A stretch of 64,000 bases of DNA from an uncultured bacterium (lineage in GTDB: Bacteria > UBA8481), in assembly GCA_964499705.1 (NCBI GenBank), contig CAZCME010000004.1, positions 1 to 64,000 of the forward strand, read 5' to 3'. The translations under genes were made by a program, and so were the position numbers. Position 1 is the first letter of the stretch, and each line of letters begins with the position of its first letter. Positions 23,353 through 51,630 of the stretch are shown here, piece after piece. The notes beneath the pieces are model-generated. The model worked only from the letters and a program-made list of their open reading frames with translations, did no database searches and had not been told where the DNA came from.

Positions 23353-24347
23353 CTAATAATTCGGACCAAACTTGTAGTTCAAGGATACCCGATGGTTGTT
23401 ACCGAGGCTACCGTAGGGAATGAAGGCGTAATCGAGCGCGAGATCGTTGACTTTGACCCCGATTCCGCCGGTCAGCCCTTCATCCGCGTCGATCCGTCCG
23501 TCCCAACCGATGCGCAAAGCGATCATATCCATGACTCTTGCTTCGGCACCCAACTGCAACGTCAGATCCTGATCCCTTACTTTTTCCACGTCTCCCGTGA
23601 ACGTAAGGCGATCGCCCAGGAGATCGACGGCCGCGCCGATGCGGAACAACGCCGGAAGCTGCTCGGACACCGAGTTTGCGGTGGCTCCGGGCACATCGAA
23701 GTTCACGTTCGTCCCGATATTGGCTCCGGTCAATGCCAGCCTGATCGGCAATGTCGAGGGGCGCATGACCATGCCGAGGTCGACCATGAACGAAGTGGCC
23801 GCGATATTGGCAAGCTCCTGGTGCAGAAGCTTGGCGGTTACTCCAAAGCTCATGAATTCATTGTACTGCCGGCCATAGGCCCCCTTGAGGATCCAGTCCG
23901 CTCCGCTGAAGGAACCGGAAGGCGTGGCATTGTTGATGAGATCCGAAAGCGTCACTCGCGGAATCTTGCCGTAGTCCAGGTAGGTCATTCCCACGCCCCA
24001 GCCCGAAATATCCGTGAAGGGCTTGGAATATCCGATCTCGCCATGGCTTATCCCCTGAACAAGGCTCTGGTATGTGGCCTGCACTTCGCTCCGATGGGTA
24101 TAGGCGAGGCCGGCGGGATTGTAATGCATCGCCGCCACGCCCAGCGCGGTCGCCGTTCCAGCGTCACCCATCNNNNNNNNNNGCCGTACGCCATAGCTTG
24201 TATTTCCACGAGATCATGGGCCGCTCCCGAGCCAATGCGAAGTACCGCGCCAGTGGTCGATCCCGCTCCGTTCGTGTTGGACCGGGCGGTCACTCCCGCG
24301 GCCAGGAGCAAGGTTGCGACGCCCGACAGCGCGATCGTCTTCATCAT
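23353..24347 (-). CDS. PorV/PorQ-like outer-membrane beta-barrel, copy 1; interrupted by an assembly gap at 24173-24182
   Basis: Signal peptide, GA.LRIGSGAA...MGDAG......AMHYNPAGL, C-terminal DYAFIPYGSLGNNHRVSLNYKF; paralog of 37847-38779. Confidence 0.8.
24173..24182. other. Scaffold gap (10 N)
   Basis: Run of N in the sequence. Confidence 1.
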
Positions 24348-24437: not shown

Positions 24438-27400
24438 TCATCGGATGATCGCCAGCTTGCCGGTGACCCGCTGGCCCGTCGCATCGTCGGTGACGACATA
24501 GAGATACACTCCGCTGGCCACCGGGCGCCCGTTCGAGCTTATGGCGCCCCAGTTGACCGTCGCGTTCGCGTTGTTCTTCTTGATCTCGATGATCTTCTCG
24601 CCGAAGAGCGTATAGATTTCGATGCGCGTCTGAGGCGTCAGGTTCTTGAACAGGATGCCTGATGTCGCATCGCCGGGCGACCACATCCTGCCGTTCTCAT
24701 CGTTGGCGTCATTGGGAATGTAGGGATTGGGGCCGACAAGGAGCCTGGTCAGCCCCTGGTCCGAAATACCCGTGTCATTCGATATGAAAAAGGGCGAGAA
24801 ATGCCTGATCGTTCCCGTCAGCGTCCTGCGGGTCCTGTTCCAGACGATGTTATCGAGAAGTTCCAGCTGTCCGGCCGCGTTCAGCGTATATATTCTAGCC
24901 TTGGACATATCGATACCTGTTGAATCGTCATAACCATTCTGGTTGGCATCGATGTAATTGATCGTGATCGTGGAAAGCGCGCCCTGGAGGAAATTACCGC
25001 CGGCTCCCGTGAGCGCCAGATGAGCCCAGTACCGGGGGATGGCGCAGCCGGCCGAGCGGATCGCGGCCAGCATCTCCTCGGTGTACGTATCGCGAGTGGC
25101 GCGGGAAGTGACGCGCGCCGTGTCGGTCGGGATCGATCCCTGCGCCAGGTTGAGCACGGCGTCGAAGATTCCGCTGGCCGAGCGGATCACGACGACATCC
25201 GCGGCCGAGCGAGTGGAGACCTGTTGCTCCTGGTAGACGGAATCCTCGGCGGCCCGCTCGTCGCCGGCCAGCACGAGATACGTCAGCGTCCCGGTGTCGC
25301 CGACGAATCCGGGCTGCTGCAGCGTGATGCCGACGGATGTGGCGTATGTGTCTTCACCCTGGCTCGTGACGGCGACCGCGACAATTTCGTAGGAGTCGGC
25401 TTTCAGCGTGCTTGTTTCCCAGAGAAAACTGTAGAACACATTTCCACTGGCATCGAAAGAGGAATCCTGAGCGACACCGATCGTCGAATAGCCAAAGCCG
25501 GACAATGCCTGCGGACGCAGCTTGAACTTGACCTGTATGATGTCGGAAGCCGTGCCCAGGACGAGTTGCGCGACCAGGGGAATGCGGTTCACGACGAGGT
25601 TCGTATCATAATGGATCCGCTCTCCCGCCTGAGGCGTCACAAACCGGACGCTCGCCGCGGGCGACGCGGAGGTCAGTCCGCGGAACACGGCCGTGATGAT
25701 CGCCGAAGCGGTGCTCTTATTGCCCGCGAGATCCTGGGAGACGATGAGAAACCGATACTGGGAATCCGCGTTCATGGAGGTCGTCGAATCGGGAAGCGTG
25801 AGGGAATAGAAGAGCTGGCCCGAGACGTGCGCGAATGTCTTCAGAAGCGCATTCGGATAGAGCCCCAGGCCGGAATCCCAGAAGAGATTATACTGACCTC
25901 CCGTCATGCCCGTGTCCCCCGACGGCGAGGGATTGAACGTGATGACGAGCAGGCCGGGATTGGTCGTCACCGTAAAATTGTCCGGCGGCAGCGGGGGTAT
26001 CCGGTCCGGCACGATGACTATGTACGTGTCATAGTAAACATCCGCGGGCGGACCGGATTCGGTGTACCAGCCGTCCGCGCCCAGCGCCGGAAAGACCACA
26101 CGGACCGTCGGAAGCCCCGTATCGACAAGGCGCACGACGATGAGATATTCCGAAGTGTCCGGAGAAAGCGGCCCCGGTCCCTGGTTGAAGGATTGAAGCT
26201 GCGTATCGGTCGGCATCGCGGTCCCCGCGGAATCCGGAAGATATCGGACCAGCCTCCATCCGTCCGCGAATAAGCCCATGCTGTCGTTCCTGAAATAACC
26301 GACCAGCGCATCACGGACGATATTTCCGGATGTATCGAACGCCTCCGAGTCGAATCTCCTGTTCCTGTTGGCATCCCGATAAAGAGTAACCGTGTCGAAA
26401 CTGAACATGCGCGACGTATCGGAGCCGAGAATGCGGATGAGAAGCGAATGCAGCGTATCGGCTTCCACATCGCTTCTGGGAATAAACCACGCGATCTCCT
26501 TCGTGTCCCCTCTCTGAATCGTGGCTGTCAGGGATGGATTTCGAGGCTCCGTGTGGATAAACATGGAATCGCGACGGTACGTGAAAGTGCAGCTCGATGT
26601 GGCGGCGGCGCCGGGACCGGTGTCCCGATACAACGTTTTCAAGCCGTGAGCGGGGATCCAGGCAAAAAGCGTCGCAGCCTGCGGCACGGTCTCCGCGATC
26701 CGAATCGTCACGAAAAATGTTTCGCCGGCCGGATCTTCCGCGGTGAATCCGTAACTCTGGTTGGCGATGCCCCAGGTTTCCTGCCCTCCCGCGGCCAGTT
26801 GCTTCGCGAGCGGAATGATGCTCTCGCCGGGCGAGAGCGTGAGCGTAACGGTATCGATGTGGCCGATGACCGCACCCGTGAACACGATCGTGAAAATCTG
26901 CAGCGTATCTCCCAGCGTTGTCACGACGGGAATACCCGCGCTGTCGCCTCCGATGAGCCCGGACATGATCACCGTCGGATTGGAATCCTGTGAGCGCGAC
27001 CGGAGCCAGTTCGGATTATTGCGGAGCGCGAAGATCGGATGGACCCACGACTTGCTGCTCAGGGTATCCATGAATGACGCGGACTTCGGCGCGCCGAACG
27101 TGATGTTCCGGGACGCCGTCACGGGGAGATCGGGCCGGTTCGTGAGAAACGTGTGCACGGAATCCGGATCGATCCGGACACGGATTCCGGCGCCCAGCTG
27201 TACCGTGTCGAAGACCTCCGCGACCAGCGTGCAGCTGATCACTGACCCGAAGATGATCGGTGAATCCATCCGTGTCGTTGTCCATCCGGAAGCTTCCTGG
27301 CGCACCAGGATGAACGTATCCCATCCTCCGCCGGCTCGATCGACGAGCACCCAGGCCGCGCGCACACTGTCTCCGCCGCTGGCTCCGTCGCCCGTGAATC

Positions 27401-35753: not shown

Positions 35754-35838
35754 TATTTTCTCCGACGTAGAAGCAGTGTTCAAGGCTGCCCGTATTATAG
35801 AGCCATCACATCGGAGAAATCACCCGAAAAATGGGATT

Positions 35839-37818
35839 TCAGCCCTCCTTCGCTTCAGCCTCGGGTTCCGGAGAAACAGGTTGCGGGCGGCGGCGCCAAA
35901 GCATGAGGTCCTTGTATTCATACGTCATGATCATCTTGGGAAACAGGAGCGCCGAAAAGGATGCAGGCACAAAATGACGTCGTGGGCGCACGGCCACAAG
36001 CTCGTACCGGGCCCCGAACGCCGCAAGCGTATCGGGCAACGGCTTGAGGGAGTCGCCAAAGACATCGATGATATAGTCGGCGTCCTGGGGAGACGGGTGC
36101 GGCACGAGATGGTGCCGGAATCTCCAGTCGTATCGGAAAAAGTCGAAGTCGGGCAAGGTCGCGGAAATCCATGTTTGCGGCGCTCTCAGGATGTTGAGCG
36201 TGAAAGAGTCGGTATTCTCGGCGACCGTAAGCATCGTCGTCACGGAGGAGCCGGGCTTCATGGTCTCGTTCATCATGTTTCCGAATTCCCTGTTCCGGTC
36301 CTTCATGTCCTGAAGGCTCATGTTGTAGATATGCGAATAGGCGACGTTGTAGCCCCCCACGAGCAGCATGAGGATCATCCCCACGGCGGGACTTCTCGTA
36401 AGGACCGGCGACCAGGCGGCGGCATTCAGGATCACGAAATACGAGATGGCGACCAACGCCAGGTAGTGCAGGCTCTGATGCAGCCAGATGGAATTATAGA
36501 TAAGCGTCACGAGCATGAAGGGAAGGGCCCATATCGAAAGCGCGATGAGGGGTTCCGGTTTCTCGAATTTCCGACGGACGATTCGAAGGAATACGAGTGC
36601 CAGGGCCGGAAGGGAGAGAATCAGGAGCGGGTAATTGATGCCGTAAGCAATGCCGTCCGCGATCCCGCGAACGACGATTCGAAGGCTAGCTTCCGAAGGA
36701 AGATTCCTGCCGAAATTCCATAGGTTGAAGGGATTGGCCTGGTTCGCTTCGCTCCGGACGATATCGAGCTCGAAAAGCCAGTAGGGACTGACGATCAGAA
36801 AAGAAATCGCGACAACGCACCCGTAACGGACCAGATCTTTCACCGCCGCAAATGATCGATCGGCCAGATCCCGACGCCCCTCCATGAATACAGGAAGAAA
36901 CCTGGCCACCGCCATGAGCGCCGCGATGAACCCGACGACGTAATTGCTGGCCAGGGCCAGGCCCGCGAAGATGGCGGAAAGAGCGAAGCATTTTCTTCCC
37001 CGGTTTTCCATGTAGGCCAGTGTCCAGTAGAGGGAGAGAAAAGCCCAGAGCGCGCCCGTCATGTAGGGTTTGGCGAGATGACCGAAGAGGACGAAATACG
37101 GCAGCGCGGAGGTGACGGCGATCGCGAAGCACGCCGCATTCGGGCCGTAAAGCCGGGAGACCGCGAGACCGAGAATAAGAATCGCGAGCAGGCCGCATAC
37201 AGTGCCCCAGCTGCGAGCCGCAATGTACATGGTTCGCGAGATTTTCGGATAGGTCAGTATCTGCGGAAGCGAAAGCGCCCTGAAGCCGTGCTTCGCGATG
37301 GTTGCGGCTCCCACGATCGCGGCCGCCGGATAGATGTAGGCCCCTCCGTAGAAAAACCATTTCGGATTGAAATTGAGATTCTGCGGCTTGAGCCGCCCCA
37401 GAGCCGCCATCGTATTCGGTTCGTCGCCGTAAATGGACCCGAGGATCTGCTTCCGGATGAGCCTTGGAAACCAGGCTCGAACGCGAAAGGAATCCGATCC
37501 ATCCGTCGAAAGGACAACGGTATCATCGGCGGTGTCCTCCGCCTGGCGGGCCATGTATTGCTCCAGCGTCAATTCCTTCGGCATGTCGAAGGAGAAGACC
37601 TTCGCGTGAGCCTGTTCCCTGTCAGCGATCATGATTTTGACGAGCTCAGGATATTTTTCGGCGTACCGGGTGATGACATCCGCCTTGTAGTCGCTGATCA
37701 TGCCGGCGTCGATCATGTAAAAGCCTTCGAAGATCGCGGCGCAGTAGAAGAGGCAGGCGAGAAAAAAGTATCCACGATGAGCGCCGTCGTGAAACGCGCT
37801 CCGCAAAGCTGAAAACAT
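35839..37818 (-). CDS. GT-C-fold membrane glycosyltransferase (GT39/PMT/ArnT-like)
   Basis: Many TM segments; first loop YGDE...NFNPKWFFYGG.YIYP; AARSW, HLAKP; soluble C-terminal domain. Confidence 0.7.
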   Translation of the reverse strand: MFSALRSAFHDGAHRGYFFLACLFYCAAIFEGFYMIDAGMISDYKADVITRYAEKYPELVKIMIADREQAHAKVFSFDMPKELTLEQYMARQAEDTADDTVVLSTDGSDSFRVRAWFPRLIRKQILGSIYGDEPNTMAALGRLKPQNLNFNPKWFFYGGAYIYPAAAIVGAATIAKHGFRALSLPQILTYPKISRTMYIAARSWGTVCGLLAILILGLAVSRLYGPNAACFAIAVTSALPYFVLFGHLAKPYMTGALWAFLSLYWTLAYMENRGRKCFALSAIFAGLALASNYVVGFIAALMAVARFLPVFMEGRRDLADRSFAAVKDLVRYGCVVAISFLIVSPYWLFELDIVRSEANQANPFNLWNFGRNLPSEASLRIVVRGIADGIAYGINYPLLILSLPALALVFLRIVRRKFEKPEPLIALSIWALPFMLVTLIYNSIWLHQSLHYLALVAISYFVILNAAAWSPVLTRSPAVGMILMLLVGGYNVAYSHIYNMSLQDMKDRNREFGNMMNETMKPGSSVTTMLTVAENTDSFTLNILRAPQTWISATLPDFDFFRYDWRFRHHLVPHPSPQDADYIIDVFGDSLKPLPDTLAAFGARYELVAVRPRRHFVPASFSALLFPKMIMTYEYKDLMLWRRRPQPVSPEPEAEAKEG

Positions 37819-37846
37819 CGGCTACTTCAGAAAGCGGAGAAGAAGG

Positions 37847-38779: not shown

Positions 38780-38805
38780 GTTCCTACTCTCCAAGCCTCT
38801 GTGTC

Positions 38806-41800
38806 TCATCGGATCACCGCCACTTTACCGGTGACTCTTTGTCCAGTAGCCACATCCGTAACCACGTAGAGGTAGTAGCCGCTCGTGACCGGCTTTCCAT
38901 TGTCGTTGATGACGCCCCAGTTCACGGCGCCGTTGTTGTCGTTCTTGTTGATCTCGGTGATCTTCTCACCGAGGATCGTGTAGATCTCGATCCTGACCCG
39001 CACCGGCAGGTTCTTGAAGATGATACCCGTCGTCGCGTCTCCCGGCACCCATGCCCGGCCCGTCTGGTCATTGCCGTCGTTCGGCATGAACGGATTCGGA
39101 CCGACGAGGAGCGAATTGAGCCCGTTCGTCACGATGCCCGTGTCGTTGGTGACGAAGAACGGCGAGAAGTGCTTCACCGTTCCCGAGACCGTGTTGAGAT
39201 CCGGATCGCGGACGAGGTTCTGGAGTCTCTCCAGCTTGCCGTCGCCGCCGACCGTGTAGATCCTCGCCTTGGCCATGTCGACGAATGAGGAGTCGTCGAC
39301 TTCGTCATTGTTCGCGTCGATGTAGTTGATCGTGATCGTCGCGCCGGCGCCGAGGCTTGTGTCGTTGGTGTTCTGTTGAATCGAGAAGTTGGCGAAGTAT
39401 TTCGGAATCTCGCAACCCATCGCACGGATCTGGGTCTGAAGAGTTTCGCCCATACCGCCGCGCTGGAGCGAGCCGACAATCCTGGCCGTATCCGAACGCA
39501 ACGATCCGAAGTTGAGCTTCAGCACGATATCGAAGGCTCCCGTCGGCGTGCGCAACTGGAGAATGTCTCCTGTGGCACGCGTGGTGACCTGCTGCTCGAT
39601 AAAGGCCGTGTCGCTCGGCGTTGTGGAATCGCCGGGGTTGTATGTCGATTCGCCGTAGACCGTGAAGTACTGTGAAAGCGACGTGTCGGTTGTCAGAGGA
39701 TCGCTGTCGACGTCCTGGAACCCGACGACCGAGAAGCTGATGCTGCTGGCGTACGTGTCGCGTCCAACAGCCGTGATGGCGACCGCGCGGACTTCAAAGG
39801 AATCCACGACTGTGCCTGCACGAGCCTGAGCCGAGAGGAAGTTGGCGACATCTGTTTCCAGAATCGCCGAGTAGTAGACATCGCCCGCGTCGTCGTAGGA
39901 CGAGTCCGCGGTGGTTGAGAACGGATGGTAAACGAAGCCGGGCTCCACAAGCTTGCGGATGCCGAACTCGATGCCCGTGACCTGCGTTGCCGTCGTCTTG
40001 TCCGTCAGCTTGGCGACAAAGTTAATGCGGTTCCTTGCCGTCGGCGAAGCGAAGTTGAACCAGATCGCGTCCCCGGCATTCGGCGAAATCATCTGCGCCG
40101 AAGCGACCGGCGGAACCGAGAGCGTCGAGCGGAAGACCGCCGTGATAACGGGCGCCGCCGGGCTGGCATTGCCGGCCGAGTCGAACGCCTGCAGGGAGAA
40201 TCGATAGGCGGAATCCGAGAAGAGCTGCGCCGTCGAATCGGGCAGCGAGATGGTGTAAGCCAGCTGGCCCGAGACATGATTGACGGTCTTCAGGATCTGC
40301 TGCGGGTAGAGACCCAGGCCTGAATCCCAGAAGAGCACATACTTGCCGTTGGTCATGCCGGTGTCGCCGGATGGCGACGGACTCCACGTGATCGACAGCG
40401 AACCGGCATTGACCGTGATCGTGAAGTCGACCGGAGTGAGCGGAGCGATTGTATCGTTCGCACCTACCGCGAAGGACTCATAAGAGACCTCTTGGCCAGC
40501 TTGCGCCGTGACTGGACCGGATTCCATATAGGGACCCGTGCAGCCCATGGCGACGATCGATGCAGTGACCGTCGTGCACTGGGTATCCGAAACCTTGACC
40601 GTCACGCAAATGATGTATTCCTGCGTGTCGACCGTCGGGAAGAAGGGGGTCTCCGTGGAGAGCGTATCCGTGGAGAACCCGCGCGCACGCTCCGATGCTT
40701 CCGTAGAGGCCGCGTTGAGCGGATTGCGCGTGAGAGTCCAGAGATCGGACGTCGCGCTAACCGAGGTGAAGAAACCAACCAGCGTATCCGTCGCGAACTG
40801 AGACGAGTCTGCCGGGTTGACAAACCGTGACTCCCAGATTCTTGACCTGTTGAAGTCCTTGTAGAGCTGGACTGTGTCGATGCTGCCCGCCAGGCCGGCC
40901 GTTCCGCGGAGGCGGATGGTCATGCCCACGATGACAGCAGTCTCGAGATCGGCCTTCGGCACGAACCACATGACAGCCTTCGTCTCGCCGCGTTCGACAA
41001 GTCTCGTAACCGACGGGTGCGGCGGCTCCGTGTGGATGAAGAAGGAGTCGCGTCTGAAGGTGAAGACGCTGCCGACAGTCTGATTCAGAGCCGTGCCCGT
41101 ATCGCGGAACTTCGTCTTGATCGAGGAAGCCCAGATCTGAGGCTCGATCGTCGATGCCTGCGCGATCGTCTCCGCGACCTGAATCGTCACGAAGAATGTG
41201 TCGCTGGCCGCATCTCCGTCAATGGCGGAGAAGACTGTATCGATATTCAGGTGGCCCCACGTCTCATAAGTTGCTTCCGTGCCGAGCCGCGTCAGAACAA
41301 TCGTGCGGAGCGGCGCGCCGACGAGATTATTCGGCATCGTCATGGTGCAGGCGATGATGCTGGAATCCGCCGTCGCGGGCCGCACGAAGGTGACCTTGAA
41401 GACGCGGAGAGTGTCGCCGGTGACCTGGATGGTCGGCAGCGCGGAGCTGTCGCCATCGATCTTGCCGGAGAGCACCACGATCGGATTGGACTCCTGACCG
41501 CGGCTTCTCAGCCAGTTCGGATGCTGACGGATCGCAAGAACCGGGTGCACCCACGCCTGTGAGGCTCGCGTGTCAATGACCACTTCGGAACGTGGCGTCC
41601 CGAAGGTGATCGTACGTCCCGTCGCCGAGAAGACTCCGCCCAGCGGTGTATCCTGCGAGTAGTACGTGTTGATCGAGTCAGGCATCATCTGGAGCGTCAT
41701 CGTCGTATTTAGAGCGACGGACTCCGCGATCCGCACGTACACCGTGCAGTGCATCCAACCGAGGTACGGCAGCGGCGAATCGATGCGGTTGAAGAACCAG

Positions 41801-44800
41801 GCATTCGTATCGACACCGAGGCCGAATGTTCCATGCCGCGGCACGCTGATCGTGTCCTGGCCGCTCACGAAAGCGCCTGTCGAATCGGTGATGGAGAGAA
41901 CCATGTTCATGGCTTCGATCGAGTCGCCGAGCGATGTGCCGGAGGTTCCGGTGATCCGGAAGCCGATCCGGTTGATCCTGTCGACAAGTCCGACGGTCGA
42001 TGTCTGGCCGCGGAATCGTCCCTGGTAAAGGACGAACGGATTCTGGCCAAGACGCGAATCCGGATGAATCGTGGACGATCGCGTGTCGTCGTTGGTGATG
42101 AGAACGGTGTCGAGATACGCCCACCGGACGATCTTGGAGCAAGTCTGGTTGTTGGAGGAGCCAGTGGTGAAGAGCGATGTCGCGGACTCAATCTTGAGGG
42201 AAGCGAAGACTCCCATCATCGTCGTGGAGCTGTCGGCGCGGAGCATGACTCCGGTGTCGTAAGCCGTGACCCAGATGCTGAACCTGTGGCCGGAGTCGAT
42301 CGGCATCATGGCCTGGATTCTCCATGACTCCGTTCCCGCCACGCGGAGGAGCTGCGTTTCATAGGACGGGTAGAAGGTTCCCGAATCTCTACGCAGCGTG
42401 AGGATGATCGAGTCGTGCGCTGCATATGTGCCGAACCCAAGCTTCGAGTCAAGGCCGACCTGGAAGAAGCTGATGGTATCCTGCGGAACGTTCGCGACGG
42501 AGAATGAACCCTGCATGATGATTGTGGAGTCGTTCTGAGCGCGGAAGAGCTGAACGATCGAGTCGTTCAGGAAGTTCGCAGTGATGCCGAACGCCGGCTT
42601 TCCAATAGTGACGAGCCGCGATGCAACCGTGGCCGTCTCCTTACGGTTGGTGAGAACCGTCAGAGTCGAATCCCTTGGAATGGTCATGCGGAGCGTCGTG
42701 TTGAGAGCCGTCGTGTCGTAAATGTTGACGAAGACCGTGCAGGTCATGATCCCGTTGAAGTTGATGCGGGTATCGAAGAATCCGAGCCAGAAGTTCGAAT
42801 CCGTGCCCCACTGCCTTGTGTCATGGCCGTTAGCGGCCAGAGTCGGATCGGTCGCGCGATAGAGCGAGATCGAATCCAAACGCTGCTGTGTCGTGTCGTA
42901 CATGATCCAGACAGCCTTGACGGCGCCGTTTCCGAAGGAATCGGTCGCGAGCTGGCCCGCCCAGTCGAACTTGATGGTGACATGACGGAAGGTGTCGGAA
43001 ACTCCGAGTGCGGACGTCTGTCCCTGGACCTTGAAGACCATGGCTACGAACGGATTGAGGAGCGTCCTGGAATCCGGATGGACGTTCGTGTCCGTCAGAG
43101 CGCTGTCAGTGATGATGATCGTGTCCACGTAGTTGTAGCGGATCGACCGGCCCGAAGTGAGATTCGTTGCCGTGCCGGAGATGAACGCCACGTACGCCGA
43201 ATCGATGTAGCCGTTCAGCGATTTGCCAATCATACCGAGCGGCGTGTCATTGGCCGTCGGAATGTCGTCGACGACCACGCGAACCGCGAACCTCTGCGCT
43301 GAGTCGACGCGAATCTGGAACGGCAGAACGTAGGTGCACTGGAACGCCTGTGTCGAGATACGGGTGAGCTGGATATTCGTGTCGAGGACACCGCCGATCG
43401 TATTGAGCCAGACCGCGATCGATTCACCGCGGAAGCTGGTGTTGACCGTGTCTCTCACAATGACCGTGAATCCGAGCAGAGAATCCCCGTAAGCATCGGC
43501 GTTTGTGACCGCGAACTTGCCGGACATGATGATGGTCGACTCCGTCTGCACCGCGAACGGCGAGACGGTCGTATCGGTCAACACATCCATGTCGATGGCG
43601 AAGGTCGGCTTGTTGAGTGTTACGAGACGACCAGAGGACGTCGAAGTGAGCTTGCCGGCCGTGAAGACCGTGCGAGCGCCTGTCTCAACGCTTGTCCCCG
43701 TATCGCCCGCACGACCATAGCGCGATAGGACAACCTCGGAACGGAGCGACTTGTTGAGAGCCACTGTCTCCAGGACGTGAACCGTGATCGTGCAGCTGAT
43801 CGAGTTGCTCGCGGCGGACATGACCGTATCGAGGGTCAAACGCCATGTGGCGGAGTCGCGACGAACAAGAGCCCTGGTTTCCGTCAGGGTGCTGACATTC
43901 GCCCAGACTGCGACGATCGTGTCATTGACGCCGAAGACGAGGCCCGGTGTTGCCGAGCCGGTGAACATGAAGTCCGCGTGGCGGAACGTATCCCTGACAA
44001 GATTTCCTGATATATCCCTGTTCGTGGTCTGACCCTGGAAGGTCACAACCTGCGCAACGAACGGCGCCATACGCTGCCTGGAGTCAGGATGAATCGTCGT
44101 ATCTCCCAAGGCGCTGTCCGTGACCGTGATCGTGTCGATGTAAGCGAGGCGGATCGTCCGGCTGCAAGTGAGGTTACCCGCTGAGCCTTGAGCGAACTGG
44201 AGCGTGATCGAATCCGTCGGAATCGTCATCGTGAGATTCTCGCCGATGTAGTTGATCGGCGTGTCGTTCAAAACAACGCGGATCGTGAATGCTTGACCGG
44301 ATTCGATCTGCAGCTTCGTATCCGCGGGATTGGCGATGTGGCGCCAACCGTAGGTCGGCGAGGTCGAGTTCGCATTGACGAGCGTCAGCGTCGTCTCCGT
44401 GAATCCGACAAGCACGCCGGACTCAAGAACCATCTTGACCGAATAGGACTCGCCGCGCGTCGTGACAAGACCGTTCAGCTGAACGCCGAACGCCACGATC
44501 GTATCCGTCGGCGCGTAGGTCACCCTGAAGTTACCGGCCATCGCCACCGTGGAGTCATTCAGCAGCCGGAACGGCGGTACAGTCGTATCGCCCAAAACCG
44601 TCATCTGAACAGAAATTGCGGGCTTCTGGTAGGTGATGGTCCGGACGCCGAGAACCGTATGCGGCAGGCCGCCGGCAAGCGGGCGGGAGTCGCGCATGAA
44701 GAGCGTCTGGATCGAGTCGGAGAAGATCTCCGCGCGCAGTCGGGCGCCATTCGGAACCGTGTCCGGAACGTGGATCGTAACAATGAAGGTATCGCTGTTA

Positions 44801-47800
44801 TTCGACCCAAGAAGCGGCGAGTCAACGGACGCCGACCAGTGCCAGATGTTGTCACCGAGCGGAACGGCAGGAGACGCCGCGCCGCGGGTCAGAACGATCG
44901 GTCGTCCTGAATCGGAGAGATAGACAATGACGGAGTCGACGGCGTTGGCCACCGTGTCACCGGCGGTCGCGCTGAATATCCGGATGCCGAAGTAGATGAG
45001 CGAATCTCCGGCAATGTTGCGCCACTGCTGACCGGCGCTATCCGTGAAGATCGTCTTAGCGTTCTGGCCGTTAATGCGCCCCGCGAAAATTACGGGCGGC
45101 GTATCGGCAAGTCGAGAATCCGGATTCACATTGGTATCCGTATAAACGAGGCTCTGCGCGATCTGCGTCGTATCGGCAAATGTGAACGAGATACCAGCGC
45201 GAGTTGTCTCCGCGCCGGTCGCGCCCTTCCACGAACCCGTATCGCCAGCAAGACCGGAGGTAAATGTCGTGTTGACCGAATCCGCCGGAATGATGACGTG
45301 CACCGTGTCGCTCAGCCCGAGCCCGCGTGAATCGGCGAGTTGGCGGAGATAACGGGCCCGGAGGAATCCGGCGTTGTTCGTCGTATTCCGGAACGTGACG
45401 AAGATCTGGAAGGCCTGCGACTCGGAAATCGTCGTGTCCTGAACGCCCGTGCGGAGGCGGTAGCTGCGCGGAGAGATAGCGAGCGAGTCGAGGTAGATCG
45501 TGTCGCCGCTCGGCCGAGCCGAAGACGGCATCAGCTTCATCGTGACGACCGCGATCGAGTCCGCCGTCATGCCGGCGGGCAGCGAGTCGAACTCAATGCC
45601 GAAGTGCGTGAGCGTGTCGTAAGCCGGCATCGGAACAGGACCGACGTTCGTAAAGATAACACCGGAGCAGACTCGGATTCCGAGTCCTCCTCGACCGTCG
45701 TTGATGATCGCGAAGTTTCTGCTGTCAGGATCGGTCGAGATCGGATTGAAGAGAATCTCCCACGGAACATATTGCGTGTCCGGCAGCGTCCACATGCCGA
45801 GCGTGACCGGATCGGCGTTGATGAGGAAGATGCCGGAGGACTCGCCGATGAGCGGGCCGGGCGAGCTGAAGACGCCCGTGCAGCCGCGACCGACGACCCA
45901 GCAAGCGAGCGTCGTTCCGGTCGGCGTCGTGTCCATCAGCCTGATCCGAATCGCAAACGTGTCGCCCGAGCGAACCGTCGAGTCAAGCCCGGTGAGGAGC
46001 CACGTATCGGCTTTGATTGGAGCTACCGCCGCCAGACGCGTCATTGCCATCCACGGACCGAAGACTCCATTGCGCTTGAACTGCACTTCCGAAGAAGTGA
46101 CGGAGTCGCTGACCTGGTTGCCGCCCGAGGTGAATCGAATCATCAGCTCGCGGAACGTATCCTGGTCGATCTCGATCAATTGGCTGTCGATCGTGATGAG
46201 AGCGTCGAAAATCTTGGCTGGAATGATCTGGGACTGGATCGGGTTGATGGTGTCCGGAGCGAGCGTCGATGAAAGCTGGGCCGGTGTGCAACCAAGCGGC
46301 GGACGGAGCGTCGTCATGACGCGTCCGGAAGTCGTCTCGGAGCTCGGACCGCTGTCTCGGAAGAACGTGAGAATCGAATCCTGCGCCACGAAGAACTGCA
46401 CGGTCGCGGCATTTTGCAGGAGCGATGCGCTGTCGTTGAAGCTGATGTAGGCGCGGAAGTTGATGGTATCCTGCGTCTGTTTCAGAGTGGTGCCGTTGAA
46501 TGTCGCGCGGAAGAAATTGCCGTTCGCGGTCATGGCAGCCGTCTCGATCCCATCGATGACAAGTGCCACCGACTCCACATCCACCGCGCTGATGCCGCCT
46601 GTGTAGACGACACGGAAACCGAACTGACTCAATGTGTCTCGGTTGATTCCCGAGATCGTATCATCGTGAATATAACCCGCGACAACAAGATAGGAATCCC
46701 GGGTTAATGACCACGGATTCGCTCCAAAGAGGACGCGCGAATCCGGATGCCCGATATTCGCAGGAAGCGTCGTGCAGCTGACGATGACCTGCGACCGAAC
46801 GATCGAATCGATCGCCGAAGCGACCTCGTTGGCATTGCCCGCGACGCGACGGCGAGTCGTGATCGAATCGGCCTGTATGACCGCTTGTATCGTCTCATTG
46901 CGCGGCGCCGTATTGAGCAGCCGAACGTAGACGCGGTAAGTCTCGTAGGATCCGAGAGCAAAGAGTGAATCCACGTTGGTGATATACAGGCTGTCTCCGC
47001 CCTTGAAAGGACGAATGCCGGTATTGCCGATTTGAATCAAGGAGTTCGTCTCATCGACGAACGTCGCATTGATGCCCGGGCTGAATTTCAGCCGGACGGC
47101 GAAACTCGTCAGCGAGTCGGACGAAAGCGCGCCCACCTGTCCCAATACTCCGTTGGAAATGAGAGTATCGGCGTTTATGGTTCCGGCCAGGATCAGAATG
47201 GAATCGCTGACGCGAGAATCCGCGTGGACAAAACGGCGTTCGAGCGGCGAATCGGTGATAGCGATACGCGGCTGCACAACCGTTACGATGCGCGCAACTG
47301 TGAAGACAGAGGATGGACCGCTCTCGCGGAAGGCAGATGCGAAGGAATCGAGTTGAACCTGCGCCTGAATCGAACCGTTAGCCGTGTCAAACGTCCTCGC
47401 ATACAGACGTACCGTTGTCGTCCCCGTAATGGTCTGATTCACAAGATAGAGATACGTATCACCAAGAATAGTGCCCGGGGGATAGGACGTTCCATTAAGG
47501 ACAAGCGTTACCGTATCCACGTATCGTGAATCCATGCGCGGTCCAGCGAAGACCAAGCGCACGTTGACGCGCGCGATCGTGTCGTAGGGCAGCGCGGGGG
47601 TCAGGAGCGTATCGGCGTTGATGAAGAATTCCGCCAGTTGGACGGAATCTCCCTGAACGCGCGAATCCGCATGAACTGTAATGGCGGGCAGAACGGAATC
47701 CGTGAGCGCAATGCGTGGCTTGACAATCGTAACAACGCGGCTGAGAAGCATGTCCTGAGCCGGGCCCGTGTCACGGAATGCCGCCGCAATGGAATCTACG

Positions 47801-50800
47801 AGGATCTGGCCCTGGATCGTGCCGTTGACCGGCGCGAGATTGAAGGTGCGGACATAGACGCGCACCGTGGTCGTATTCGAAACAGTCTGGTTCGGGAGAA
47901 TACCGAAGGTATCACCCGTACGGCTGGACGTGACATACGGCGTGTTATCCACGACGAAGATAACGGTATCGATGTGCGTTGCCGAGACAAGACCGCCGCC
48001 GAGAATGAGGCGCGTCTGGAGACGGGTGATCGTATCGTATGGCAAAGGCGTCGTTAGCAGTGTGTCGGCAGCTACAAAGAATGACGCAAGGAAAATCGAA
48101 TCGTTCTGGATGCGCGTGTCGGGATGAATTCCGATGCTCGGCATCGCGGAATCCACCACAATGACACGCGGCTTCCGATATGTAACCGTGCGACTTGCCA
48201 AGAGCGACGAGTCCGGACCCGCGACGCGATAACGGGTGGTCACGGAATCCTGCAGGATTTGAGCTCTCAATGTGGCCAGATTGGGAACGGAACTCTCCGT
48301 GCGGATATAAATTCGGAAGCTTTCATATGTGCTCTGGCTAAACGCGGAATCTAGGCCCGGCGCTTCAATATAGTACGTGTCGCCGGCGCCACGCTTGGGC
48401 GTCCAGATTGTATTGCCGATCACGATCTGCGAGACCGTTTCTTTGACGTGCGCCGTGGTCATTCCGCCGGTGAAGATGAGCCGGAACGTAAAACCAGTCA
48501 GCGAGTCGGAAGGCAACGACGGCGTCAGGAGCGTATCCCTGTTGATCGTTCCGGCCATGACAAGAACCGAGTCGGTGACGCGCGTATCCGGATGAACAGT
48601 GACGTTGCCTAGCGTGGAGTCGGCAATTTCGACCCGCGGCTTGTTAATCGTGACCGTACGACTTCCCAATAAGGAAGAATCCGGACCGGCAACGCGGAAC
48701 CTTGAGGAGACGGAATCCTGGAGAATCTGCGCGCGGATCGTGCCGTTGACGGGCGTCGAGCTCTCCGTGCGAATGTAGACACGATAGCTTTCATACGTGT
48801 TGAAACTGAATCCCGAGTCAAGACCCGGCGCCTCAATGTAGTACGTATCTCCGGCGCCACGCTTCGGTGTCCAGATCGTATTTCCTATGACGATTTGAGA
48901 GGTTGTTTCGCTGATATTCGCCGTCGAGACGCCGCCCGTAAAGATGAGGCGGAACGTAAAGCCGGTCAGTGAATCGTTGGCAAGAATCGGCGTCAAAAGT
49001 GTATCTGCGTTGATTGTTCCCGCCAATATGAGGAATGAATCCGTGACCCGAGTGTCGGGATGAACCGCAATGTTCGAGAGCGCCGAGTCGGCGACCGTGA
49101 GCTTCGGCTTGTTGATGGTAACCGTTCGGCTGCCCAAGAGCGACGAATCCGGTCCTGCGACGCGATAACGCGTGGTGATCGAATCCTGAAGTATCTGAGC
49201 GCGAATCGTTCCATTGACGGGTGTGGAACTTTCCGTGCGAATGTAGATCCGGTAGCTTTCGTACGTATTCAGGCTGAACGCGGAATCAAGTCCCGGCGCC
49301 TCGATATAGTACGTATCGCCGGCGCCACGCTTGGGAGTCCAGACCGTATTGCCGATCACGATCTGCGACGTTGTTTCGCTGATATGCTGCGTTCCGACGC
49401 CGCCCGTGAAAACGAGACGGAAGGTGAACGCCGTCAGAGAATCCCTTGGAAGGATCGGCGTCAACAGCGTATCCGCGTTAATGGTTCCCGCCATGATGAG
49501 GAAGGAATCCGTAACGCGTGTATCCGGGTGCACCGCGATATTCGTCAATATGGAATCCGCCACGGTGACACGCGGACGGTTGATCGTCACGGTGCGGCTA
49601 CCCAAAAGCGATGAGTCCGGCCCCGCGACGCGATATCGGGTTGTCACGGAATCCTGAAGTATCTGAGCCCGGATTGTGCCGTTGATCGGAGTGGAGCTCT
49701 CCGTGCGAATGTAAATGCGGAAGCTTTCATAAGTGTTCAGGCTGAAGGATGAATCCAAGCCCGGCGCCTCGATGTAATATGTGTCGCCTGCGCCGCGCTT
49801 CGGCGTCCATACCGTATTACCGATGACAATCTGAGAAGTCGTTTCGCTGATATGCGCCGTCGTGACACCGCCCGTGAAGACGAGACGGAACGTGAATCCT
49901 CTCAACGAATCGGATGCAATGGAAGGCGTGAAAAGCGTGTCCGTATTAATGGTTCCGGCCATAAGAAGGAACGAATCCGTTATCCGCGTATCGGAATGAA
50001 CGGCAATGCTCGATAACGTGGAATCCGCAATAGTGACTCGCGGCTTATTGATGGTGATGAGCCTGCTGCCGACAACAGAGTCGGACGGGCCGGATGACCG
50101 GTATCGGAACGTTACGGAATCGATCGGCACAATGGCCCGAACCGTGCCGTTGATGGGCGCCGTCTCACGGATCGTGATTCGGATCGTATACGACTCCGCG
50201 ACGCCAAAGGACTGATTGATGACCGCGGTCAGATATGAGTCGCCTGAGGAAGCTGCAAGCGCGCCCGAGCTGTCGGCGGTAAATTCGGTCGCGCCGAGGA
50301 GCACTCCCACGGACTCGACGTCCAGATAGGACATACCGCCTCCGAATTGGAGGCGCAGGCCGAAGCGCTGGACGGAGTCGCCACCGAGCCGAACCTGCAA
50401 CAATGTGTCCGGTTGAATCGTTCCCACAGCAAGGATATACGGTGTCCCGGCGGCGCGCGAATCCGGATGCGCAATGATGTTCGGCAACGAGCTGTCATGC
50501 AGTGCGGCGCGGGGACGCGAGAATGTCACGACACCGGAGGAATCCTTGACCGTGGCATTGCCGCGGCGGAACTTGGATCCGACGGAGTCCACCGGTATCG
50601 TGCAGCCCACAAACCCCTGCAACGGGGGCGTGTCGGCCGTGACAACAACGCGGAACGTATCCACGCCGCCAGCGAGCGCGAGGATGACGGTCGAAATGTT
50701 GGGGGCATTCCAAGACGTCGTGCCGGCGGTTCTCGCCAGATCCACACGAACATCAGGAGTTACGGCCGAACCGACGATGAGCCAGGCGCTATCGATGTTG

Positions 50801-51630
50801 GCGCCGGCCGAACCGCCCATGTCCACTCCGAACTTCGCCAAGCTATCGCCACCCACCGTGCGAGTCTCTCCCTGGAGCGTTCCATGGAGAAGCGTGAACG
50901 GTGACTGTCCAGCGGCGCCGGAATCCTGGAACGCGAACTTGTTGCCGATAAACGGCGTCCCCGTCGAGTCGCTGTAGACGCGGAAGATGAAGGTATCGAG
51001 ATCTCTCTGGCCAGGATTGGGCTTCTGCGTGACGGTCGGACCGGCGGTATCCATCACAATCGTGACGCCGCGGTTCGGTATGCGAACAAATATGGTCGTG
51101 TCGTTCAAGCGCAGATTATTTTTCGTGTATACGACAATGACATACGATTCCGTGCCGGTGAAAAGAATTCTGCCGGCAGCCGGCTCGGTGACGATCAGAC
51201 TATAGTCGACCGTGGAGCCGGTATCGGCGACGGGCAATGTCTGCCTTGCGATCCGAGTGACGTCACCAGCATCGAACTGTTGGTTGTTGTTCGCGTCCAC
51301 ATAGAGGTCAACGGTATCGATAATGCTGGCGAAAGGAACAGAGTTAGGCGATTTGACGAATTGAATCTTAAAATCCGTAACCGTGTCGGGCACGCCGGCG
51401 GAACCGGAGCATCCGATCGCGCCCGCCGTGTTGAGGTAGAACTTCAGAATACCTCCGGGAACCAGGCCGGTGTCGGCGAAGGCGGCCGGAGGAGTTTTCA
51501 GAAGATTTGAATAGCTATCGCCGCGGATGACATCGCGGAATGCGGCCTGCGCATGCGCAGCCTGAGGCATCAGAGAAATAATTGCCGAAAGTATAAGTCC
51601 GTACGAAAAAACCTTGGCCGACATCTTCAT
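38806..51630 (-). CDS. Giant secreted repeat protein 2 (~4,270 aa), paralog of giant 1, with a T9SS-type C-terminal sorting domain
   Basis: Signal peptide ending AAHA-Q; same domain order as giant 1; C-terminal GPNPFMP...IYTILGEKI...WGV.NDNGKPVTSGYYLYVV...KVAVIR; SD GGGGTG before ATG 51630. Confidence 0.85.
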   Translation of the reverse strand: MKMSAKVFSYGLILSAIISLMPQAAHAQAAFRDVIRGDSYSNLLKTPPAAFADTGLVPGGILKFYLNTAGAIGCSGSAGVPDTVTDFKIQFVKSPNSVPFASIIDTVDLYVDANNNQQFDAGDVTRIARQTLPVADTGSTVDYSLIVTEPAAGRILFTGTESYVIVVYTKNNLRLNDTTIFVRIPNRGVTIVMDTAGPTVTQKPNPGQRDLDTFIFRVYSDSTGTPFIGNKFAFQDSGAAGQSPFTLLHGTLQGETRTVGGDSLAKFGVDMGGSAGANIDSAWLIVGSAVTPDVRVDLARTAGTTSWNAPNISTVILALAGGVDTFRVVVTADTPPLQGFVGCTIPVDSVGSKFRRGNATVKDSSGVVTFSRPRAALHDSSLPNIIAHPDSRAAGTPYILAVGTIQPDTLLQVRLGGDSVQRFGLRLQFGGGMSYLDVESVGVLLGATEFTADSSGALAASSGDSYLTAVINQSFGVAESYTIRITIRETAPINGTVRAIVPIDSVTFRYRSSGPSDSVVGSRLITINKPRVTIADSTLSSIAVHSDTRITDSFLLMAGTINTDTLFTPSIASDSLRGFTFRLVFTGGVTTAHISETTSQIVIGNTVWTPKRGAGDTYYIEAPGLDSSFSLNTYESFRIYIRTESSTPINGTIRAQILQDSVTTRYRVAGPDSSLLGSRTVTINRPRVTVADSILTNIAVHPDTRVTDSFLIMAGTINADTLLTPILPRDSLTAFTFRLVFTGGVGTQHISETTSQIVIGNTVWTPKRGAGDTYYIEAPGLDSAFSLNTYESYRIYIRTESSTPVNGTIRAQILQDSITTRYRVAGPDSSLLGSRTVTINKPKLTVADSALSNIAVHPDTRVTDSFLILAGTINADTLLTPILANDSLTGFTFRLIFTGGVSTANISETTSQIVIGNTIWTPKRGAGDTYYIEAPGLDSGFSFNTYESYRVYIRTESSTPVNGTIRAQILQDSVSSRFRVAGPDSSLLGSRTVTINKPRVEIADSTLGNVTVHPDTRVTDSVLVMAGTINRDTLLTPSLPSDSLTGFTFRLIFTGGMTTAHVKETVSQIVIGNTIWTPKRGAGDTYYIEAPGLDSAFSQSTYESFRIYIRTESSVPNLATLRAQILQDSVTTRYRVAGPDSSLLASRTVTYRKPRVIVVDSAMPSIGIHPDTRIQNDSIFLASFFVAADTLLTTPLPYDTITRLQTRLILGGGLVSATHIDTVIFVVDNTPYVTSSRTGDTFGILPNQTVSNTTTVRVYVRTFNLAPVNGTIQGQILVDSIAAAFRDTGPAQDMLLSRVVTIVKPRIALTDSVLPAITVHADSRVQGDSVQLAEFFINADTLLTPALPYDTIARVNVRLVFAGPRMDSRYVDTVTLVLNGTSYPPGTILGDTYLYLVNQTITGTTTVRLYARTFDTANGSIQAQVQLDSFASAFRESGPSSVFTVARIVTVVQPRIAITDSPLERRFVHADSRVSDSILILAGTINADTLISNGVLGQVGALSSDSLTSFAVRLKFSPGINATFVDETNSLIQIGNTGIRPFKGGDSLYITNVDSLFALGSYETYRVYVRLLNTAPRNETIQAVIQADSITTRRRVAGNANEVASAIDSIVRSQVIVSCTTLPANIGHPDSRVLFGANPWSLTRDSYLVVAGYIHDDTISGINRDTLSQFGFRVVYTGGISAVDVESVALVIDGIETAAMTANGNFFRATFNGTTLKQTQDTINFRAYISFNDSASLLQNAATVQFFVAQDSILTFFRDSGPSSETTSGRVMTTLRPPLGCTPAQLSSTLAPDTINPIQSQIIPAKIFDALITIDSQLIEIDQDTFRELMIRFTSGGNQVSDSVTSSEVQFKRNGVFGPWMAMTRLAAVAPIKADTWLLTGLDSTVRSGDTFAIRIRLMDTTPTGTTLACWVVGRGCTGVFSSPGPLIGESSGIFLINADPVTLGMWTLPDTQYVPWEILFNPISTDPDSRNFAIINDGRGGLGIRVCSGVIFTNVGPVPMPAYDTLTHFGIEFDSLPAGMTADSIAVVTMKLMPSSARPSGDTIYLDSLAISPRSYRLRTGVQDTTISESQAFQIFVTFRNTTNNAGFLRARYLRQLADSRGLGLSDTVHVIIPADSVNTTFTSGLAGDTGSWKGATGAETTRAGISFTFADTTQIAQSLVYTDTNVNPDSRLADTPPVIFAGRINGQNAKTIFTDSAGQQWRNIAGDSLIYFGIRIFSATAGDTVANAVDSVIVYLSDSGRPIVLTRGAASPAVPLGDNIWHWSASVDSPLLGSNNSDTFIVTIHVPDTVPNGARLRAEIFSDSIQTLFMRDSRPLAGGLPHTVLGVRTITYQKPAISVQMTVLGDTTVPPFRLLNDSTVAMAGNFRVTYAPTDTIVAFGVQLNGLVTTRGESYSVKMVLESGVLVGFTETTLTLVNANSTSPTYGWRHIANPADTKLQIESGQAFTIRVVLNDTPINYIGENLTMTIPTDSITLQFAQGSAGNLTCSRTIRLAYIDTITVTDSALGDTTIHPDSRQRMAPFVAQVVTFQGQTTNRDISGNLVRDTFRHADFMFTGSATPGLVFGVNDTIVAVWANVSTLTETRALVRRDSATWRLTLDTVMSAASNSISCTITVHVLETVALNKSLRSEVVLSRYGRAGDTGTSVETGARTVFTAGKLTSTSSGRLVTLNKPTFAIDMDVLTDTTVSPFAVQTESTIIMSGKFAVTNADAYGDSLLGFTVIVRDTVNTSFRGESIAVWLNTIGGVLDTNIQLTRISTQAFQCTYVLPFQIRVDSAQRFAVRVVVDDIPTANDTPLGMIGKSLNGYIDSAYVAFISGTATNLTSGRSIRYNYVDTIIITDSALTDTNVHPDSRTLLNPFVAMVFKVQGQTSALGVSDTFRHVTIKFDWAGQLATDSFGNGAVKAVWIMYDTTQQRLDSISLYRATDPTLAANGHDTRQWGTDSNFWLGFFDTRINFNGIMTCTVFVNIYDTTALNTTLRMTIPRDSTLTVLTNRKETATVASRLVTIGKPAFGITANFLNDSIVQLFRAQNDSTIIMQGSFSVANVPQDTISFFQVGLDSKLGFGTYAAHDSIILTLRRDSGTFYPSYETQLLRVAGTESWRIQAMMPIDSGHRFSIWVTAYDTGVMLRADSSTTMMGVFASLKIESATSLFTTGSSNNQTCSKIVRWAYLDTVLITNDDTRSSTIHPDSRLGQNPFVLYQGRFRGQTSTVGLVDRINRIGFRITGTSGTSLGDSIEAMNMVLSITDSTGAFVSGQDTISVPRHGTFGLGVDTNAWFFNRIDSPLPYLGWMHCTVYVRIAESVALNTTMTLQMMPDSINTYYSQDTPLGGVFSATGRTITFGTPRSEVVIDTRASQAWVHPVLAIRQHPNWLRSRGQESNPIVVLSGKIDGDSSALPTIQVTGDTLRVFKVTFVRPATADSSIIACTMTMPNNLVGAPLRTIVLTRLGTEATYETWGHLNIDTVFSAIDGDAASDTFFVTIQVAETIAQASTIEPQIWASSIKTKFRDTGTALNQTVGSVFTFRRDSFFIHTEPPHPSVTRLVERGETKAVMWFVPKADLETAVIVGMTIRLRGTAGLAGSIDTVQLYKDFNRSRIWESRFVNPADSSQFATDTLVGFFTSVSATSDLWTLTRNPLNAASTEASERARGFSTDTLSTETPFFPTVDTQEYIICVTVKVSDTQCTTVTASIVAMGCTGPYMESGPVTAQAGQEVSYESFAVGANDTIAPLTPVDFTITVNAGSLSITWSPSPSGDTGMTNGKYVLFWDSGLGLYPQQILKTVNHVSGQLAYTISLPDSTAQLFSDSAYRFSLQAFDSAGNASPAAPVITAVFRSTLSVPPVASAQMISPNAGDAIWFNFASPTARNRINFVAKLTDKTTATQVTGIEFGIRKLVEPGFVYHPFSTTADSSYDDAGDVYYSAILETDVANFLSAQARAGTVVDSFEVRAVAITAVGRDTYASSISFSVVGFQDVDSDPLTTDTSLSQYFTVYGESTYNPGDSTTPSDTAFIEQQVTTRATGDILQLRTPTGAFDIVLKLNFGSLRSDTARIVGSLQRGGMGETLQTQIRAMGCEIPKYFANFSIQQNTNDTSLGAGATITINYIDANNDEVDDSSFVDMAKARIYTVGGDGKLERLQNLVRDPDLNTVSGTVKHFSPFFVTNDTGIVTNGLNSLLVGPNPFMPNDGNDQTGRAWVPGDATTGIIFKNLPVRVRIEIYTILGEKITEINKNDNNGAVNWGVINDNGKPVTSGYYLYVVTDVATGQRVTGKVAVIR
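48170..50043 (-). repeat. Four highly similar tandem 468-bp (156-aa) repeats within giant protein 2
   Basis: The (K/R)P anchor falls at 50041, 49573, 49105, 48637 and 48169, an exact 468-bp period; each unit contains WTPKRGAGDTYYIEAPGLDS. Confidence 0.92.

Follow-up and report, generated by a model that had tools for sequence, protein, structure and literature searches.

A likely periplasmic O-glycosylation sequon, centred on aspartate before serine or threonine, in giant exported proteins of an uncultured bacterial phylum

Why is aspartate so often followed by serine or threonine in two giant proteins of an uncultured bacterium (GTDB lineage UBA8481)? The two genes, giant 1 and giant 2 (Table 1), are encoded in the window analysed here, the 64,000-nucleotide stretch at positions 1 to 64,000 of contig CAZCME010000004.1 (assembly GCA_964499705.1). 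The original prediction read the bias as very dense O-glycosylation, possibly installed by a membrane glycosyltransferase of the GT-C fold encoded between the giants (the adjacent GT-C). Our analysis shows that the motif, best written [D>C,E]-(S/T), is favoured in cargo proteins that carry a C-terminal sorting tail and disfavoured in three other settings: outer-membrane barrels, that tail itself, and the exported giants of a second class. The motif is likely to be a sequon of periplasmic O-glycosylation, phylum-wide and most probably resembling that of Bacteroidota.

About three quarters of the Asp residues precede Ser/Thr in each giant, 189 of 247 in giant 1 (observed/expected ratio, O/E, 3.62) and 215 of 281 in giant 2 (O/E 3.58), the giant 2 motif counts being taken over the open frame that reaches position 51762. 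The bias described earlier is therefore real, although its extent, given as nearly every Asp, was too high. The first 156-residue repeat of giant 2 (residues 573-728) is as extreme as had been stated, every one of its 9 Asp and 3 of its 4 Glu standing in front of Ser/Thr. Glu precedes Ser/Thr in 31 of 75 cases in giant 1 (O/E 1.95) and 53 of 92 in giant 2 (O/E 2.70), so the claim that most Glu do so holds for giant 2 (58%) but not for giant 1 (41%). Cys, absent from the original prediction, does so at 17 of 18 positions in giant 1 and 15 of 19 in giant 2. Among the 20 residues, only Asp, Glu and Cys are clearly enriched before Ser/Thr in both giants.

Selection on the protein is well supported. 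In 2000 composition-preserving shuffles, D-(S/T) reached 52.3 ± 6.3 (maximum 72) for giant 1 and 59.9 ± 6.5 (maximum 83) for giant 2, and the five other reading frames gave O/E values of 0.7-1.3. Many codon pairs encode the motif, as had been noted (16 of 20 in giant 1 and 18 of 20 in giant 2), and codon choice after Asp is about the same as in the remainder of the gene. The predicted fading of the bias in the C-terminal sorting domain was also seen, with 2 of 12 Asp in residues 3601-3781 of giant 1 and 1 of 7 in residues 4201-4318 of giant 2. Site density is 5.0 D-(S/T) per 100 residues, or 6.3-6.7 when Glu and Cys are included, and takes up about 30% of all Ser/Thr. At about one site per 15-20 residues the giants fall below mucins, whose site density is higher, and the mucin-like density proposed earlier was overstated. 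Ser and Thr together make up 21% of the giants, Lys 1-1.7% and Glu 2%. N-x-S/T is slightly elevated, in part through N-D-S/T.

Covariation among the repeats gives the same first-position rule. We kept 59 of the 83 repeats at below 50% identity and calculated column-stratified odds ratios for Ser/Thr as the next residue. The values were 14.8 for Asp, 8.3 for Glu and 82 for Cys (35 of 37), against 0.68 for Asn and 0.85-1.14 for G, A, Q, S, T and P. When pairs of homologous repeats were compared, Ser/Thr was retained in 5609 of 5823 cases (96%) where the partner residue was Asp, in 416 of 463 (90%) where it was Glu or Cys, and in 406 of 1884 (22%) where it was any other residue, these pairs being non-independent. 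At the acceptor position itself Ser and Thr exchange freely across repeats.

The bias extends across the genome of the window (G000) and its four relatives (G001-G004), which are the five genomes of the phylum. The 3362 genes called by an in-house script were sorted into classes by simple heuristic rules, so class borders are rough. In the sorting-tail class (29 proteins) 4546 of 8465 Asp are in D-(S/T), an O/E of 2.49, and 27 of the 29 are individually enriched; genome-wide, 37 proteins are enriched at p<1e-5. The cytoplasmic class stands at 0.82, and this contrast between secreted and cytoplasmic proteins, where equal enrichment would have counted against glycosylation, favours the original prediction. 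Signal-peptide proteins are overdispersed for D-(S/T) (chi2/df 3.2 versus 1.3), with both tails populated. When exported proteins were binned by their D ratio, the E ratio rose through 0.66, 0.80, 1.04 and 1.57 and the C ratio climbed too; in cytoplasmic proteins binned in this way the E ratio is flat (1.00-1.14). C-(S/T) is likewise in excess in the other cargo after dereplication (163 of 404 versus 86.9 expected) and in the relatives (61 of 125 versus 27.2). For the relatives, 20 regions were picked mainly for their longest tail-bearing frames and 17 frames were pooled, one more enriched frame (L031) being left out of the pool by the pattern. Pooled cargo gave a D-(S/T) O/E of 2.39 in G002, 2.68 in G003, 2.52 in G001 and 2.23 in G004, and among the genomes of the phylum the bias spans a guanine-plus-cytosine (GC) content of about 0.39 to 0.69.

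Avoidance of the motif elsewhere is the key new evidence of this analysis. The barrel-like class has D-(S/T) at 37 of 662 Asp (O/E 0.40). In 27 PorV-like paralogs the counts fall to 9 of 620 Asp versus 79.8 expected (O/E 0.11) and 31 of 468 Glu versus 59.6, and in the barrel-only part of 23 of them to 5 of 424 and 10 of 255. As a family control this is clean only in part, since close PorV homologs have 6 of 445 and distant ones 39 of 415 versus 52.6 expected. Across the pooled tail proteins, the final 90 residues contain D-(S/T) at 8 of 252 Asp versus 33.8 expected and E-(S/T) at 4 of 144 Glu versus 19.5, so the sorting tail is depleted and the bias there does more than fade. An exported protein of 7,526 residues (C14:2206-24786), 21% Ser and Thr, has D-(S/T) at 3 of 318 Asp and E-(S/T) at 12 of 293 Glu; another, of 5360 residues (C12:95220-111302), has E-(S/T) at 4 of 277 Glu, and its D-(S/T) are almost confined to DxDxDG loops, which we take to be Ca2+-binding. 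Some exported proteins accumulate the motif and others are cleared of it, which means that something outside the cytoplasm reads it.

The exported giants that avoid D/E-(S/T) form a class of their own, visibly Lys-rich and without a sorting tail (C14:2206-24786, C9:126781-144801 and C12:95220-111302; L169-L172). Two of them adjoin sequon-rich cargo genes.

Under the glycosylation reading, a membrane GT-C enzyme would transfer a lipid-linked sugar to the Ser/Thr hydroxyl after Sec export, and by analogy with Bacteroidota the first sugar may be mannose. The residue before the acceptor would act as a carboxylate or thiolate, either as a metal ligand or as a general base, and for that reason D, E and C would work and N would fail. 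The giants would leave by a PorV-associated route similar to a type IX secretion system (T9SS), with tails left bare, and form glycan-coated rods of about 5-14 sites per domain in which glycans may replace the surface charge that Lys and Glu would otherwise provide. The selection pattern is observed; from it we infer the sugar and its lipid-linked donor, the part played by the residue before the acceptor, and the route of export.

How closely would this match the Bacteroidota system? The Bacteroidota glycan sits on Ser/Thr and has a Man-Rha-GlcA core. The Bacteroidota motif is described as the only known sequon for bacterial O-glycosylation, its transferase is listed as undiscovered, enrichment of the motif is named for Bacteroidota and Fibrobacterota only, and the core begins with mannose, likened to eukaryotic O-mannosylation (2025 review, PMC12871550). 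The two systems both place Asp ahead of a Ser/Thr acceptor, keep to exported proteins and disfavour Pro, Asp and Glu behind that acceptor. Both also make heavy use of T9SS-type cargo, as in Tannerella forsythia, and avoid outer-membrane barrels, as in Porphyromonas gingivalis. They differ in that Glu and Cys are selected here like Asp, whereas Glu is not tolerated in Bacteroides fragilis and is rare elsewhere, in the weak third position here, and in average periplasmic proteins, which are unenriched here. The host also differs, being another phylum of five genomes; it is not a member of Bacteroidota, because the phylum consists of these genomes and the source labels of close homologs are Candidatus Lindowbacteria and Candidatus Hydrogenedentes, and we take it to lie at a distance from the Fibrobacteres-Chlorobi-Bacteroidetes (FCB) group. 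If TfsB of T. forsythia is, as we assume, about 1,350 residues long, its 19-20 sites compared with about 200 D-(S/T) per giant make the giants about 3.5 times denser, the sites here being motif counts. TfsB, with 19 of 20 sites glycosylated, was the most glycosylated protein of its study (PMC8550257); in P. gingivalis, barrels and cargo of high abundance do not contain the motif (PMC8729774), and in Prevotella intermedia ETI and ESV sites occur but are rare (PMC10897501). The sequon-like part of the original prediction is well supported. The strict third position A/I/L/V/M/T is present at only 108 of 189 D-(S/T) sites in giant 1 and 116 of 215 in giant 2. Over the cargo the same set follows D-(S/T) in 49% versus a background of 42%, with P, D and E low, and an extended set (adding S/C/G/F) in 73% versus 68%, again as motif counts and not modified sites. 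The system works like the Bacteroidota one and stands apart from it in the strict sense by its host, its first-position rule and the absence of an LFG locus at metG. The literature found, which covered few subscription papers, contained no report of the motif in this lineage, although Fig. 2A of PMC12871550 plots enrichment of the motif for every GTDB genus and may show the lineage without comment. Among the Lindowbacteria paper titles listed, none concerned glycosylation.

Which enzyme might read the motif? Our first-ranked candidate, a tentative choice that we would sooner expect to fail than to hold, is a single-copy gene, located outside the window, similar to human TMEM260 (PF11028). One full-length ortholog is present in each of the five genomes, and of the 14 control genomes B. 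thetaiotaomicron alone has a match. The protein matches human TMEM260 with an E-value of 1.2e-10 and shares the PF11028 domain with its catalytic Asp, the equivalent of Asp52 being conserved. Human TMEM260 (GT117) mannosylates immunoglobulin (Ig)-like beta-domains (PMC10214176), although its sequon is a long Pro/Gly motif and not D-(S/T) (bioRxiv 10.64898/2026.09.21.753134). The bacterial family is wide, its nearest clusters being mostly from Chloroflexota, and it is found in 21 of 61 genomes of another phylum. The literature found, with few subscription papers covered, gave no link between TMEM260/DUF2723 and Bacteroides. Next in the ranking are conserved Wzy_C+TPR and PMT_2 genes, followed by the adjacent GT-C. 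Conservation was judged by setting 33 GT-C-type genes found in G000 beside the loci retrieved from G001 for PMT_2, Wzy_C and YfhO, and beside most of the corresponding loci from G004. The genes conserved in this comparison were the TMEM260-like one, three of PMT_2 type and several of Wzy_C type. YfhO has been predicted as the Bacteroidota oligosaccharyltransferase, yet the same preprint reports none in P. gingivalis, a species that has the system (bioRxiv 10.64898/2026.07.27.740950). Here YfhO (PF09586) matches are weak, occur in four of the five genomes and cover the last 50-80 profile positions only, the G000 match being below cut-off; the YfhO-type proteins of G000 and G001 align across only 77 residues, which gives no full-length ortholog set. 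N-glycosylation was rejected, with PF02516 (STT3) matching in none of the five genomes and controls positive. The TMTC family gave no match, yet its controls were silent as well, so that result is uninformative.

Several features of the TMEM260-like genes were noted in passing. In four of the five genomes the gene follows a similar large TPR-type gene, and in several genomes the C-terminal domain of the protein (L042-L046) itself has D-(S/T) at matching positions. In the other phylum (G006-G065) such genes were mostly not found or were present in 5-8 copies, often in tandem.

In its boldest form, which we regard as improbable, our proposal would be a new rule. Any potentially anionic residue (Asp, Glu or Cys) would license the next Ser/Thr outside Bacteroidota and Fibrobacterota, thousands of glycans would sit on giant secreted proteins (about 7% of the genome's worth; 29 proteins contain 4559 D-(S/T)) with the second exported class left bare, and a TMEM260-like GT-C common to Bacteroides would initiate. 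If that were true, the initiator here would also name the long-missing core transferase of Bacteroidota.

A number of results weigh against Bacteroidota-like glycosylation. Ordinary signal-peptide proteins (soluble class, O/E 0.99) and lipoproteins (0.81) are on average unenriched, unlike in Bacteroidota, and one of the 17 pooled cargo proteins of the relatives is unenriched (18 of 84). The third position is weak, with L/I/V/T/A/S at about 58% against about 90% in Bacteroidota glycoproteomes (PMC12871550), and Cys before the acceptor is without precedent in the literature found, few subscription papers among it. The Cys signal also has exceptions, namely a small cytoplasmic bin with a C-(S/T) ratio of 2.0 and the avoiding giant C9:126781, in which C-(S/T) stands at 8 of 26 (O/E 2.2). 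Our p-values are overstated, since repeats, paralogs and genomes are related. No LFG-type locus was found beside metG of G000, whose neighbours look like housekeeping genes with N-termini judged by eye; within Bacteroidota, too, the LFG locus (metG, wzx, glycosyltransferases) is not universal (PMC12871550). The TMEM260-like gene failed as a general predictor of the signature in the other phylum. There, with 15 genomes that have a match and 15 without from 61 sampled (30 best loci versus all 28 loci), barrel D-(S/T) O/E was 1.12 (71 of 508) with the gene and 0.43 (27 of 458) without a match, so that partial barrel depletion also occurs elsewhere. The PorV-like barrels of the genomes without a match (L101-L128, from 12 genomes) have normal E-(S/T); common descent, or a separate system in those genomes, may lie behind their D-(S/T) depletion.

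Finally, sequence statistics cannot separate a sugar from another Ser/Thr adduct. An enzyme-read periplasmic sequon that is real but carries a non-sugar group, such as phosphoglycerol, phosphoethanolamine, phosphate or sulfate, is the alternative that survives best, though we consider it unlikely. The enrichment, avoidance and covariation results are all compatible with any bulky or charged adduct, the D/E/C rule and the weak third position are unlike Bacteroidota, and no enzyme is linked to the motif. On the other hand, glycosylation is the one D-(S/T) system that the literature found describes (PMC12871550), with the same barrel avoidance (PMC8729774), and the genome has 23 PMT_2, 9 Wzy_C and 1 TMEM260-like matches.

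A structural role for D-(S/T) in the repeat fold, by strand capping, Asx/ST turns or Ca2+ ligation, is a further alternative. The modelled repeat (residues 573-728, from an 83-row alignment) has a predicted local distance difference test score (pLDDT) of 90.4 and resembles Ig/cohesin-like sandwiches without a clear family. Its fold matches are generic beta-sandwiches, the best being a sialidase N-terminal domain (Z 9.4, root-mean-square deviation 2.9, 126 aligned residues), and a cohesin module gives Z 8.7. No Pfam family was found for the repeat (the best matched 2 of 83 members), and an Atlas search with it gave no usable match. By the DSSP string of the predicted model, 8 of the 12 D/E-(S/T) acceptors lie in coil; of the other four, 2 open a strand, 1 falls in a strand only two residues long and 1 is internal to a strand. 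Several sites are at or right before a strand start, as capping would have it. The Asp at repeat position 46 is invariant in 83 of 83 domains and is probably structural, because it stays even in the 7 of 59 repeats where no Ser/Thr comes next. As an account of the motif in general, however, the structural role fares badly, and we hold it to be very unlikely. Asn, the usual capping substitute, brings no Ser/Thr with it, the bias is found in many unrelated cargo proteins, and barrels, sorting tails and other beta-rich giants would not be cleared of a motif whose role was structural. DxDxDG-type loops are present separately, in C12:95220. Among the 61 repeat matches in the library, several weak and probably distant ones have a D-(S/T) O/E of 1.0-1.1 (P0072, P0081, P0085, P0092, P0098 and P0099); the fold therefore seems not to need the motif. 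Four Lys-richer matches (P0093, P0097, P0104 and P0071) reach 2-3, so the signature may extend past the five genomes.

The adjacent GT-C has its position in its favour as a dedicated local installer, lying between the two giants on the same strand with a PMT_2 match and a GT-C fold. Synteny and distribution speak against it in that role, the signal being genome- and phylum-wide. In G001 (L025) and G002 (L001, L022) the giant ortholog has PorV after it and heptose genes beyond that, without a GT-C, and D-(S/T) O/E is still 3.5-4.1. Its best match in G001, a 94% complete genome, has an E-value of 8.9e-5 at 24% identity; no full-length ortholog was found in G001, G003 or G004 (86-94% complete), and the one that exists, in G002 at 44% identity, is placed among unrelated genes. 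Only four other close homologs were found. PMT_2 matches number 23 in the genome, this gene among them; a sequence search with its profile brought up no relative of solved structure, and its best fold matches, the glycan-extending ALG12 and ALG9 together with ArnT, all have template-modelling (TM) scores of 0.35-0.40, which gives no discrimination. We see hardly any chance of a dedicated local system and very little of the adjacent GT-C as the initiating enzyme, although it could still decorate an existing glycan. An artefact arising from repeat expansion, from composition or from a DNA-level motif, to which the repetitive, Ser/Thr-rich giants might seem prone, is already largely refuted and next to inconceivable, as the shuffles never came near the observed counts, other frames are flat, codon use after Asp is ordinary, and the effect persists after 50% dereplication with column stratification and across the whole GC range.

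If periplasmic O-glycosylation is correct, another lineage that shares the core motif, accepts more residues at the first position and comprises only five genomes narrows the list of candidate enzymes. The giants would be a natural and very dense substrate, with one 156-residue domain offering 9 Asp and 3 Glu sites, and the Asp/Glu/Cys rule hints at a testable acceptor chemistry. Paired enrichment and avoidance are also a means of finding, from sequence alone, modification systems that are still unknown among uncultured bacteria.

Export of the giants shares with T9SS a signal peptide, a C-terminal sorting-type domain and a PorV/PorQ-family gene beside each giant, and differs in the 27 PorV-like paralogs of a single genome. 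For TIGR04183, giant 1 is just above cut-off (26 versus 23 bits) and giant 2 is unmatched, its tail giving only a weak match to the PorZ C-terminus. SprA_N matches were weak and below cut-off in two of the five genomes, with none in G000 and controls silent, and PorU-type C25 matched in none of the five, again with controls silent. A possible arrangement is a T9SS-like route in which each cargo has its own shuttle. Many of the 27 PorV/PorQ-like paralogs lie directly after a giant cargo gene, in a genome (G000) without a SprA_N or C25 match.

The features of the locus are collected in Table 1. On the minus strand the order is giant 2, a PorV/PorQ barrel, the adjacent GT-C, giant 1, a second PorV/PorQ barrel, and then heptose and Kdo genes.

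Table 1. Coordinates of the giants and neighbouring features in the 64,000-nucleotide window
Feature	Coordinates	Strand	Description
Giant 2, open frame	38806-51762	minus	4318 residues; Met and signal-peptide-like start at 51630
Giant 2, features	38806..51630	minus	Signal peptide, about 20 Ig/cohesin-like beta-sandwich repeats of about 155 residues, C-terminal sorting-type domain
Giant 2, repeat region	41053..50976	minus	20 domains, 6-14 D-(S/T) each
Giant 2, repeat 573-728 (first 156-residue repeat; modelled)	49579..50046	minus	
Giant 2, last 90 residues, sorting-type tail	38809..39078	minus	Almost without sequon
PorV/PorQ-family outer-membrane barrel	37847..38809	minus	NF033709 172.7 bits (cut-off 90); D-(S/T) at 0 of 19 Asp
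GT-C-fold membrane glycosyltransferase (adjacent GT-C)	35839..37818	minus	PMT_2 match; lineage-specific neighbour
Giant 1	24438..35783	minus	3781 residues; about 18 repeats and T9SS type A-like sorting tail; paralog of giant 2
Giant 1, repeat region	26574..35090	minus	18 domains, 5-12 D-(S/T) each
Giant 1, last 90 residues, sorting domain	24441..24710	minus	TIGR04183 26 bits (cut-off 23); almost without sequon
Second PorV/PorQ-family barrel	23353..24347	minus	Above NF033709 cut-off; broken by assembly gap; D-(S/T) at 0 of 18 Asp in readable part

The assembly gap in the second PorV-like gene consists of 10 N at 24173-24182, and the part upstream is out of frame across it. In G002 the giant ortholog (L001:1-11026) is split into two overlapping frames, of 1558+ and 2191 residues, by a frameshift or an assembly error.

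Elsewhere in G000, proteins with short C-terminal ends resembling membrane anchors are also rich in D-(S/T) (C6:130109, C7:158285, C6:188901, C21:51160 and C38:1627); such ends are presumably types of sorting signal. Other sequon-rich proteins have a tail that looks dockerin-like by eye (C10:41619-53428, C17:146-4387, C33:10427-17101, C28:29393-33688 and C9:102368-102910), and there is one Pfam cohesin match (C33:8313-8681). Together with the cohesin-like folds of the repeats, these features make a scaffold-type assembly possible. A gene resembling mannose-1-phosphate guanylyltransferase lies at 57091-58161, about 5 kb upstream of giant 2, and a similar one is found upstream of the giant ortholog in G002 (L022).

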